Assembly (NCBI RefSeq): GCF_003334385.1
Contig: NZ_QOWN01000054.1
DNA from: Escherichia coli
GTDB taxonomy: Bacteria; Pseudomonadota; Gammaproteobacteria; Enterobacterales; Enterobacteriaceae
Length of the DNA: 31,048 nucleotides
Strand: one strand, 5' to 3'
The notes under the pieces were generated by a model, which did no database searches, was not told the DNA's origin, and was given only the letters and a program-made list of their open reading frames with translations. Position 1 is the first letter of the stretch. Each line of letters opens with the position of its first letter. Positions 441 to 547 of the stretch are shown in pieces. The position numbers and the translations under genes are program-made.

Positions 441-547
441 TACAATGCGGGCGAAAAATAAGGATGCCCCGTTAGGGGCGTTAGCTGAGTTTTTCGCGAA
501 AAATTCAGCTAACGCTCTCTGTAATAGTCAAATCCAGGGGATTTACC

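Follow-up and report, generated by a model that had tools for sequence, protein, structure and literature searches.

RESULTS

In the Escherichia coli region analysed here, a 31,048-nt stretch of contig NZ_QOWN01000054.1 (RefSeq assembly GCF_003334385.1; hereafter the window), the segment between the promoter and the start codon of the purine synthesis genes purHD encodes a conserved structured cis-acting 5′ leader that is absent from Rfam 15. It contains two adjacent hairpins, P1 and P2, to which an earlier note on this DNA had drawn attention. We found that the hairpins are not independent, since the 3′ arm of P1 can pair with an invariant GCUCU that follows P2, and that the stem seen in E. 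coli is a cut-down version of an element that is much larger in other genera, both of which the note had missed. We are highly confident that the leader forms a functional conserved RNA structure. The best overall explanation, to which we assign a probability of roughly 40%, is a structured purHD leader RNA that most likely adopts two states; the specific model in which one state would mask the Shine–Dalgarno (SD) sequence of purH is possible and rather doubtful. The leader probably controls purHD mRNA after transcription. As a + strand RNA located 3′ of a PurR-controlled promoter, it would add a post-transcriptional layer to purHD expression. Its elements, in window positions, are as follows.

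466–479, + strand: P1, GCCCC-GUUA-GGGGC, with a C-run arm at 466–470, the loop GUUA at 471–474 and a G-run arm at 475–479
480–513, + strand: P2, 15 bp, with arms at 480–494 and 499–513, the loop CGCG at 495–498 and one wobble pair, G489-U504
514–520, + strand: pyrimidine tract GCUCUCU, invariant, with which the G-run can pair in place of the C-run
530–544, + strand: weak local hairpin AAAUCC-AGG-GGAUUU holding the SD sequence, −3.4 kcal/mol
536–541, + strand: purH SD sequence AGGGGA

Two adjacent hairpins in the purHD leader

Both hairpins lie where the earlier note had placed them, between the PurR box with the −10 hexamer (425–446) and the SD sequence and start codon of purH (536–541 and 548). 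P2 is indeed a 15-bp stem with a single G-U pair, but its end had been set at 514, one base too far, as the stem stops at 513. When folding energies were compared with those of shuffled sequences, P1 alone was unremarkable (−10.0 kcal/mol, z-score −2.4), since 11 of 200 shuffles folded equally well. P2 (−16.7 kcal/mol, z-score −6.5) and an extended form of P2 spanning 476–517 (−26.1 kcal/mol, z-score −7.0) were each equaled by 0 of 200 shuffles, and the whole stretch from 450 to 560 had a folding z-score of −4.2. A repeat search returned a longer palindrome at 478–515 with 21-nt arms that are 95% complementary; it re-uses G478 and C479, thus overlapping the 3′ arm of P1, and G514 and C515 also belong to it. 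The suggestion that the hairpins are unusual enough to have a function is supported.

Neither hairpin is a standard terminator, as had been stated from the lack of a T-tract, and on the + strand neither stem is indeed followed by one. A terminator scan of 1–700 returned no + strand candidate in 447–547, where P1 is followed by GUUAGC and P2 by GCUCUC, and an intrinsic terminator or attenuator on this strand was rejected.

Conservation of the leader across Enterobacterales

We collected purH leaders from reference genomes scanned with the PurH N-terminus and from metagenomes scanned with the PurR box plus the −10 hexamer of non-Enterobacteriaceae promoters, which yielded ~100 distinct leaders. 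A common architecture was visible in 93 leaders spanning Enterobacteriaceae, Erwiniaceae and Yersiniaceae. A small GC-rich hairpin and GUUA(G/C/U)CUGA come first; after a stretch of widely differing length, U.A..UAAC and the invariant GCUCU follow. The base of P2, formed by GUUA.CUGA and U.A..UAAC, was almost invariant, and its apical part varied in both length and sequence. The distance between the outer arm ends ranged from 34 to 114 nt over all leaders. Escherichia and Citrobacter had the shortest, 34 nt; it was 45 nt for some Enterobacter-like genomes and 51–114 nt for Erwinia, Pantoea, Serratia, Yersinia and Rahnella, where the apical part is a second stem of the polypyrimidine-UAUAUA-polypurine type. 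Given these long apical forms elsewhere and the 34 nt in E. coli, E. coli carries a minimal form of a larger element.

A covariance model built solely from 14 Enterobacteriaceae leaders had a single match in the window, at 453–550 on the + strand. It also matched the purH leaders of Cedecea-like, Erwinia, Pantoea, Serratia and Rahnella-like sequences, and had no match at the Vibrio, Aeromonas, Pasteurellaceae, Morganellaceae, Tatumella and Rosenbergiella loci; several loci without a match still had some long hairpin at the equivalent place. The element is thus conserved in Enterobacteriaceae, Erwiniaceae and Yersiniaceae and more weakly in Brenneria. Rfam 15 gave no relevant match in 1–1000 at E-values of up to 10, where the sole overlap was a chance match to mir-725 (23.8 bits versus a threshold of 76), and a scan of the whole window at the gathering thresholds found nothing in the leader; likewise, none was found in 20 related purH loci.

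Several variations on the common form were also observed. In long-form leaders of Erwinia, Pantoea, Serratia and Yersinia (L020, L023, L024, L030 and most of L082–L161), the apical stem is of the CUUCUU-AUAUA-GAAGAG type; the polypyrimidine-UAUAUA-polypurine stem is conserved as a pattern and is wholly absent from the E. coli form. The leader of Photorhabdus caribbeanensis (L033, about 430–570; 267 nt) has a ~130-nt insertion inside the long hairpin, which we take to resemble an ERIC/IRU repeat. Two Yersinia-like leaders (274 nt) have an extra ~110 nt between the promoter and P1, with the hairpin module unchanged.

Covariation of the paired positions

To count covariation, 76 distinct rows were arranged in fixed-length blocks around two sequence anchors (alignment A1), which is gapless and was not fitted to the pairing. 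In P2, 85.4% of the cells were standard pairs, compared with 36–48% when the partners were slid by 1–3 columns, and twelve pairs were changed on both sides (175 cells). Stem position 5, for instance, was C-G in 37 leaders, G-C in 21, U-A in 8 and U-G in 4. The covariation score of P2 was reached by 0 of 500 shuffles, a control that is not a probability, and kinship among the sequences inflates the covariation counts, which has to be held against our interpretation. Despite this relatedness, the P2 helix is secure, given the low pairing in the slid controls and the different kinds of pair observed. Positions 6 and 8 were mismatched in 45 and 35 of the 76 leaders, respectively, and both are paired in E. 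coli. Conservation of the pairing in related genomes, which the earlier note had proposed as a test of its observation, holds with compensatory changes across at least three families.

For P1, 98.6% of the cells were paired across the 14 Enterobacteriaceae leaders, with one compensatory change from C-G to U-A (GCCUC/GAGGU) in an Enterobacter-like genome. In a few taxa another hairpin takes the place of P1, for example GUUC/GAAC, CCUGG/CCAGG or GCGU/GCGC. P1 covariation in the alignment of long-form leaders (A3) was left uncounted, as MAFFT sets the P1 arms in differing registers.

Assignment of the structure to the purHD mRNA

G-U pairs outnumbered A-C pairs by 68 to 41 in P2 and by 148 to 10 in the helix below P2, and the wobble pair of E. 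coli (G489-U504) was G-U in 11 and A-U in 3 of the 14 Enterobacteriaceae leaders. On the − strand, P2 folds with −12.8 kcal/mol, which is 3.9 kcal/mol weaker than on the + strand. Both the G-U excess and the weaker − strand fold indicate that the structure belongs to the + strand RNA, namely the purHD mRNA.

These measurements separate the functional options that the earlier note had listed, of which an mRNA stability element and a protein or small RNA (sRNA) target, both acting at the RNA level, survive and a second operator does not. A near-perfect DNA palindrome near a regulated promoter could in principle be a DNA-level element, either a cruciform or a further operator bound by PurR or some other regulator. 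However, no PurBox-like sequence was found in 447–547 even at 3 mismatches, and the half-site distance of 34–114 nt would not be tolerated by a dimeric DNA-binding protein. Moreover, the compensatory changes preserve complementarity rather than sequence, which together with the variable arm spacing argues against a double-stranded DNA operator, and G-U pairs far exceed A-C pairs. We therefore attach almost no weight to a DNA-level explanation; a second PurR box and an operator for a dimeric regulator were both rejected on the lack of a PurBox, the spacing and the twelve compensatory pairs.

The same comparison bears on a terminator of the opposite strand, in which P2, with GCCCCUAACGGGGC and AUCCUUAUUUUU after it, would end antisense transcription short of the rrnE promoters. 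The scan did flag P1 plus ATCCTTATTT (479..466) as terminator-like on the − strand. Against this, AUCC lies between the stem and the U-run, the tail is not conserved in other genera such as Pantoea and Serratia, and each wobble pair is an A-C mismatch when read on the − strand, with the loss of stability given above. A − strand terminator is thus exceedingly improbable.

Constraint within E. coli and Escherichia

Bases 250–650 of the window were matched in 5,420 of 5,426 complete E. coli genomes, mostly at 99–100% identity. The 76 nt at 455–530 were identical in 5,333 of the 5,420 genomes (98.4%), compared with 1,452 of 5,420 (27%) for a control 76-nt segment of the purH coding sequence and 1,064 of 5,102 (21%) for a control 76-nt segment of the upstream intergenic region. 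The leader is more strongly fixed in E. coli than the adjoining coding sequence. Among sequences of E. coli, of a divergent lineage of this species and of E. albertii, only three sites were variable in 136 nt: G462A in the single-stranded 5′ part, which removes the GGA at 462–464 in natural Escherichia variants; C495U in the P2 loop; and C479U, which remains paired both in P1 (as G-U) and in the alternative helix (as U-G).

Such fixation is difficult to reconcile with a functionless relic left by some palindromic repeat or mobile element (REP/BIME/ERIC/MITE-like). The leader hairpin is palindromic and intergenic, and one Photorhabdus leader contains a large insertion inside it, as such a relic might. 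Yet each of the 5,420 E. coli genomes has it at one locus; a median of 2 'places' per genome was counted, compared with 1 place for the control segments, which most likely reflects the palindrome matching its own opposite strand. It is also found at the orthologous position in all genera, under stronger constraint than coding sequence, and with a single covariance-model match in the window. A relic is extremely unlikely, and a dispersed repeat was rejected on the single locus per genome and the single match in the window.

The invariant helix base and the near-total fixation in E. coli suggest that something reads the sequence. The leader could be the site of a sequence-specific RNA-binding protein or sRNA that reads the P2 base, the P1–P2 junction and GCUCU, with the apical stem as a scaffold. 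The P2 base is kept in sequence (columns 9–12 and 41–44 of A1 are 95–100% identical), although a helix needs only complementarity. CUGA on the left strand is invariant while its partners vary, with the frequent mismatches at positions 6 and 8 noted above, and in E. coli almost all positions are fixed, those of the loops among them. On the other hand, our literature search found no candidate and no purH link with CsrA, Hfq, ProQ, CLIP-seq or RIL-seq. CsrA-regulated leaders have at least two GGA motifs, one of them at the SD sequence and commonly exposed in loops; in the purH leader, GGA occurs at 462–464 and within the SD sequence; the upstream copy, a possible CsrA site before P1, is kept in most Enterobacteriaceae and Erwiniaceae and is lost in Serratia and in the G462A variants of Escherichia. 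We regard a protein or sRNA site as rather unlikely, and it could coexist with the two-state model as its trigger.

Two further observations concern the coding sequence. The first 20 codons of purH (548–607) showed synonymous-site conservation of 0.80–0.85, compared with ~0.65 further into the gene (26 genera), and CGCGCTCTG at 572–580 in purH is a repeat of CGCTCTCTG at 513–521 in the leader.

Two mutually exclusive structures and a possible switch

P2 can be extended by pairing 476–479 with 514–517 and by adding G475-U518, which gives a helix of 19–20 bp. When the G-run pairs with GCUCU in this way, P1 necessarily opens. P1 plus P2 had a folding energy of −26.7 kcal/mol versus −26.1 kcal/mol for extended P2, and constrained folds of the whole leader gave a difference between the states of mostly 0 to −5 kcal/mol (31 leaders); the leader can thus form two mutually exclusive structures of similar free energy. 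The extension helix was almost invariant and 93.7% paired in the 76 leaders, with one compensatory case in Brenneria (GAACG/CGUUC), and Mangrovibacter has, as read from its sequence, U-A in place of C479-G514 of E. coli. RNAalifold, unprompted, gave extended P2 for both the 14 Enterobacteriaceae leaders and 22 long-form leaders (Erwiniaceae/Serratia), and in both sets the freed C-run was paired with the G-run of the SD sequence (C467–470 with G537–540 in E. coli).

The mechanism that we tentatively propose would be a four-strand arrangement of the C-run, the G-run, the CU-run and the SD sequence. In state A, the G-run (475–479) would pair with the C-run (466–470) to form P1 beside the 15-bp P2, and GCUCU (514–518) and the SD sequence would be free of long-range pairs, leaving the SD sequence open. 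In state B, the G-run would pair with GCUCU, P2 would grow to 19–20 bp, P1 would open and the freed CCCC (467–470) would pair with GGGG of the SD sequence (537–540), closing the translation initiation region. As the two states are nearly equal in energy, a factor (a protein, an sRNA, the ribosome or a small molecule) capturing the C-run, the pyrimidine tract or the P2 base could set purH translation, and the stability of the mRNA would be set secondarily by the same capture. What we infer from this arrangement is that each state can change into the other in vivo, that translation is affected and that a trigger exists.

A number of points weigh against the switch and, more generally, against the two-state reading of the leader. 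Because the extension helix and the helix between the C-run and the SD sequence are almost invariant, covariation neither proves nor disproves either of them. The latter helix comprises only 4 bp of C/G, with no compensatory change in either clade, and complementarity of a C-rich run to a G-rich SD sequence easily arises by chance. When the C-run, the G-run, the CU tract or P2 was removed in silico, the unpaired probability of the SD sequence stayed at 0.23–0.46; accessibility barely changes because other pairings take over with 25 nt of coding sequence included. Rahnella and some other taxa lack the C-run and P1 yet keep the long hairpin, so that the switch cannot be universal. In published data, a purH entry is absent from the transcription start site (TSS) supplements of Cho 2011, Romero 2014, ROSE 2023, Mendoza-Vargas 2009 and Cappable-seq 2016, the 3′ end of a purH leader is absent from the Term-seq supplements of Adams 2021, and no link of purH to any RNA-binding protein or sRNA was found in the literature.

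The absence of a clear on/off effect in the in silico mutants would also be expected of a passive structure, in which stable hairpins protect the mRNA by limiting the access of RNase E or Rho or by preventing misfolding of the SD sequence, with no switching or ligand. In addition, a long hairpin persists where the sequence is unrelated (Mangrovibacter, Tatumella, Morganellaceae and Acerihabitans), and the apical part is free to vary provided that pairing holds. A passive role leaves the invariant base, the invariant GCUCU and the fixed loops and linker of E. coli unexplained, and P1 lies ~13 nt from the predicted 5′ end, which is too far for a classical 5′-terminal protective stem of the ompA type. 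With respect to cleavage by RNase III, for which the criterion is about two turns (~20 bp) of uninterrupted double-stranded RNA, P2 has 15 bp and the extended form 19–20 bp including G-U pairs; in the spacer between purH and rrsE, a single RNase III site has been reported, which was ascribed to the rrsE precursor (PMC5371410). Overall, we consider a purely passive structure improbable, to about the same degree as a protein or sRNA site.

Two other pairings were noted. A 5-bp long-range helix between GGAUG (462–466) and CGUCC (codons 5–6) appeared in some minimum free energy folds. An alternative pairing of GCGAAAAA (451–458) with UUUUUCGC (490–497) was rejected, as it is not conserved elsewhere and lies partly 5′ of the predicted TSS.

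We also considered a leader peptide. The E. coli leader has no in-frame start for an upstream open reading frame (uORF). A frame ending in ..DVTLLSMRTKAKG* is open in Erwinia and Pantoea, and in many Erwiniaceae generally, with an in-frame AUG in only a few leaders, so that it is probably a by-product of nucleotide conservation; a conserved uORF attenuator was rejected on this scarcity of start codons. Where the frame does begin with AUG, it reads M-(T/A)-K-(I/V/L)-(D/E)-V-T-L-L-S-M-R-T-K-A-K-G-stop (L022, L026, L088 and L020) and ends inside the purH SD sequence (GGGAUAA).

Comparison with known regulatory leaders

The regulatory logic of the proposed two-state leader is closest to those of the SD-masking leaders of pyrC and pyrD and of RNA thermometers, and its gene context is closest to that of the ZTP riboswitch; it is a member of none of these classes. 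In E. coli and Salmonella, pyrC and pyrD have SD-masking leader hairpins governed by start-site selection. Like purH, these are nucleotide biosynthesis genes with PurR-bound promoters and a pyrimidine-rich strand able to pair with the SD sequence, on top of repression. However, their anti-SD strand lies at the extreme 5′ end and is present depending on the initiating nucleotide, whereas the C-run of the purH leader lies ~14 nt inside and would normally be held in P1, and a hairpin of at least 34 nt and a third competing strand (GCUCU) intervene. RNA thermometers such as ROSE and fourU share the predicted pairing of the SD sequence with an upstream C/U-rich strand and alternatives of similar energy, but the purH leader has no sequence similarity to them, and its masking helix would be of 4 bp and nested around a very stable hairpin. 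Stabilizers of the ompA type likewise have stable hairpins in the 5′ untranslated region that can prolong mRNA life; in the purH leader, by contrast, the first stem is not 5′-terminal and sequence conservation exceeds the needs of stability.

The ZTP riboswitch (pfl motif, RF01750) is a cis-acting leader RNA before purH, and is how purH responds to ZMP/ZTP and folate stress in many other bacteria. The purH leader analysed here differs from it, as it gives no RF01750 match even at an E-value of 10 and lacks the pseudoknotted two-domain architecture; in E. coli, its helix is almost perfect and offers no evident pocket for a ligand.

The leader also resembles the boxB-boxA sites of rrn leaders, phage lambda nut and the suhB 5′ untranslated region (PMC5725501), in that G-Y-U-C-U-U comes after a 5-bp GC-rich hairpin and a longer one and that an rrn operon adjoins purH. 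GCUCU(U) after the hairpin could accordingly be a boxA in boxB-boxA order, where NusB/NusE would modulate Rho termination or translation as at suhB. The tract after P2 matches GYTCTT in all long-form leaders; compared with the boxA consensus GYTCTTTAANA (PMC5725501), two leaders (GTTCTTTAATG and GCTCTTTAAAG) match at 10 of 11 positions and 46 leaders at 9 of 11, and purH adjoins an rrn operon in E. coli, Pantoea and Tatumella. However, none of the 93 leaders has a perfect match, the best being 10/11, and GCTCTCTGTAA of E. coli matches at 8/11 with the mismatches T6C, A8G and A9T (positions 6, 8 and 9). In suhB, a boxA double mutant C4T/T6C abolished SuhB recruitment (PMC5725501). Furthermore, purH is absent from the supplementary lists of the boxA survey (PMC5725501), and the tract is predicted to be base-paired and not single-stranded. 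A Nus-factor site is thus very unlikely, and a canonical boxA in the E. coli leader was rejected on the 8/11 match including T6C.

Promoter and locus architecture

The window corresponds to the rrnE-purH-purD-zraR region of E. coli. RefSeq annotation of the identical E. coli region has purH and purD rightward and 16S rRNA, tRNA-Glu and 23S rRNA diverging leftward, with rrnE ~400 bp away from the purH leader. The promoter elements and genes are as follows.

425–440, + strand: PurR operator (PurBox) GCGCAAACGTTTTCGT, one mismatch to the consensus ACGCAAACGTTTTCNT
441–446, + strand: putative −10 hexamer TACAAT of the purHD promoter, assigned by sequence and position
447–465, + strand: GC-rich discriminator GCGGGCG, predicted TSS and A-rich single-stranded 5′ end GAAAAAUAAGGAU
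548–550, + strand: purH start codon ATG (open reading frame list and RefSeq annotation)
548–2137, + strand: purH (open reading frame list and RefSeq annotation)
2149–3438, + strand: purD (open reading frame list and RefSeq annotation)

A search with the 16-bp imperfect palindrome ACGCAAACGTTTTCNT allowing up to 3 mismatches returned the PurBox at 425–440 as the sole such site in the leader region, and Cho et al. 2011 (PMC3159470) list this 16-mer as the site bound by PurR at purH-purD. It is invariant or almost so across ~100 purH promoters. TACAAT abuts the PurR box and is kept at all Enterobacterales loci examined. Promoter geometry would place the TSS at ~453 (±2), 7 nt 3′ of the −10 hexamer, so that the leader region would be transcribed as a ~95-nt leader with P1 beginning at about +14. 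The 5′ end of purHD was reportedly mapped in papers of 1989 and 1990. The abstract of the latter, by Flannigan et al., reportedly describes primer extension of the 5′ end and two dyad symmetries in the leader that can form hairpins, where one excludes the other but not vice versa; if so, the bare hairpin observation is already 35 years old, and it is in agreement with our own findings.

Several side observations were made on the promoter and its surroundings. The discriminator at 447–453 (GCGGGCG) stays GC-rich in the ~100 purH promoters, and a GC-rich discriminator is typical of promoters under stringent (ppGpp/DksA) control. A block, AAAATTCGCGAGCG, at 405–424 immediately 5′ of the PurR box is kept across Enterobacterales purH promoters. 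The −35 region poorly resembles TTGACA, and a promoter scan missed the purH promoter entirely. 16S rRNA also diverges from purH in Pantoea and Tatumella (L020:1–871 and L025:1–880, − strand) and most draft-genome contigs end 270–700 nt 5′ of purH, from which the rrn-purHD neighborhood looks conserved across Enterobacterales.

Elsewhere in the window, a PurBox-like ACGATAACGTTCTCTT with 3 mismatches was found at 18674–18689 (+ strand), probably by chance given 3 matches in the window versus 1.4 expected. A sub-threshold Rfam match to the Yersinia sRNA Ysr197 at 53–286 (− strand; 118 bits versus a gathering score of 167) spans the promoter and leader region of rrnE and takes in the rrn boxA, which reads TGCTCTTTAACAA on the minus strand near 63–75. 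The other Rfam matches at the gathering level were a TPP riboswitch at 11801–11901 (+ strand), sroH at 17594–17754 (+ strand) and P26 at 27090–27151 (− strand), which are expected features of the E. coli region concerned.

DISCUSSION

The purHD genes are a textbook case of PurR regulation; post-transcriptional control of purHD was not reported in the literature searched, and our literature search on the RNA structure of the purH leader found nothing relevant. A further and more specific reading of the leader is that of an undescribed, Enterobacterales-specific riboregulator responsive to a ligand or factor, with P1, the P2 base and GCUCU as its sensing and expression platform, which we regard as a long shot. 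It would couple purH translation to a signal invisible to PurR. ZTP was first described in enteric bacteria, which are without the ZTP riboswitch, and this makes ZMP/ZTP or 10-formyl-tetrahydrofolate candidates for the signal; the neighboring rrn operon makes free Nus factors or the status of ribosome synthesis another candidate.

If the leader is merely a stabilizing hairpin, it is an ordinary feature that is worth annotation only. If it is true that the leader regulates translation or stability, it would constitute a second control layer on enteric purine synthesis and is a concrete candidate for how purH might be adjusted without the ZTP riboswitch used by other phyla, for which the two-state arrangement supplies precise point mutations for testing.

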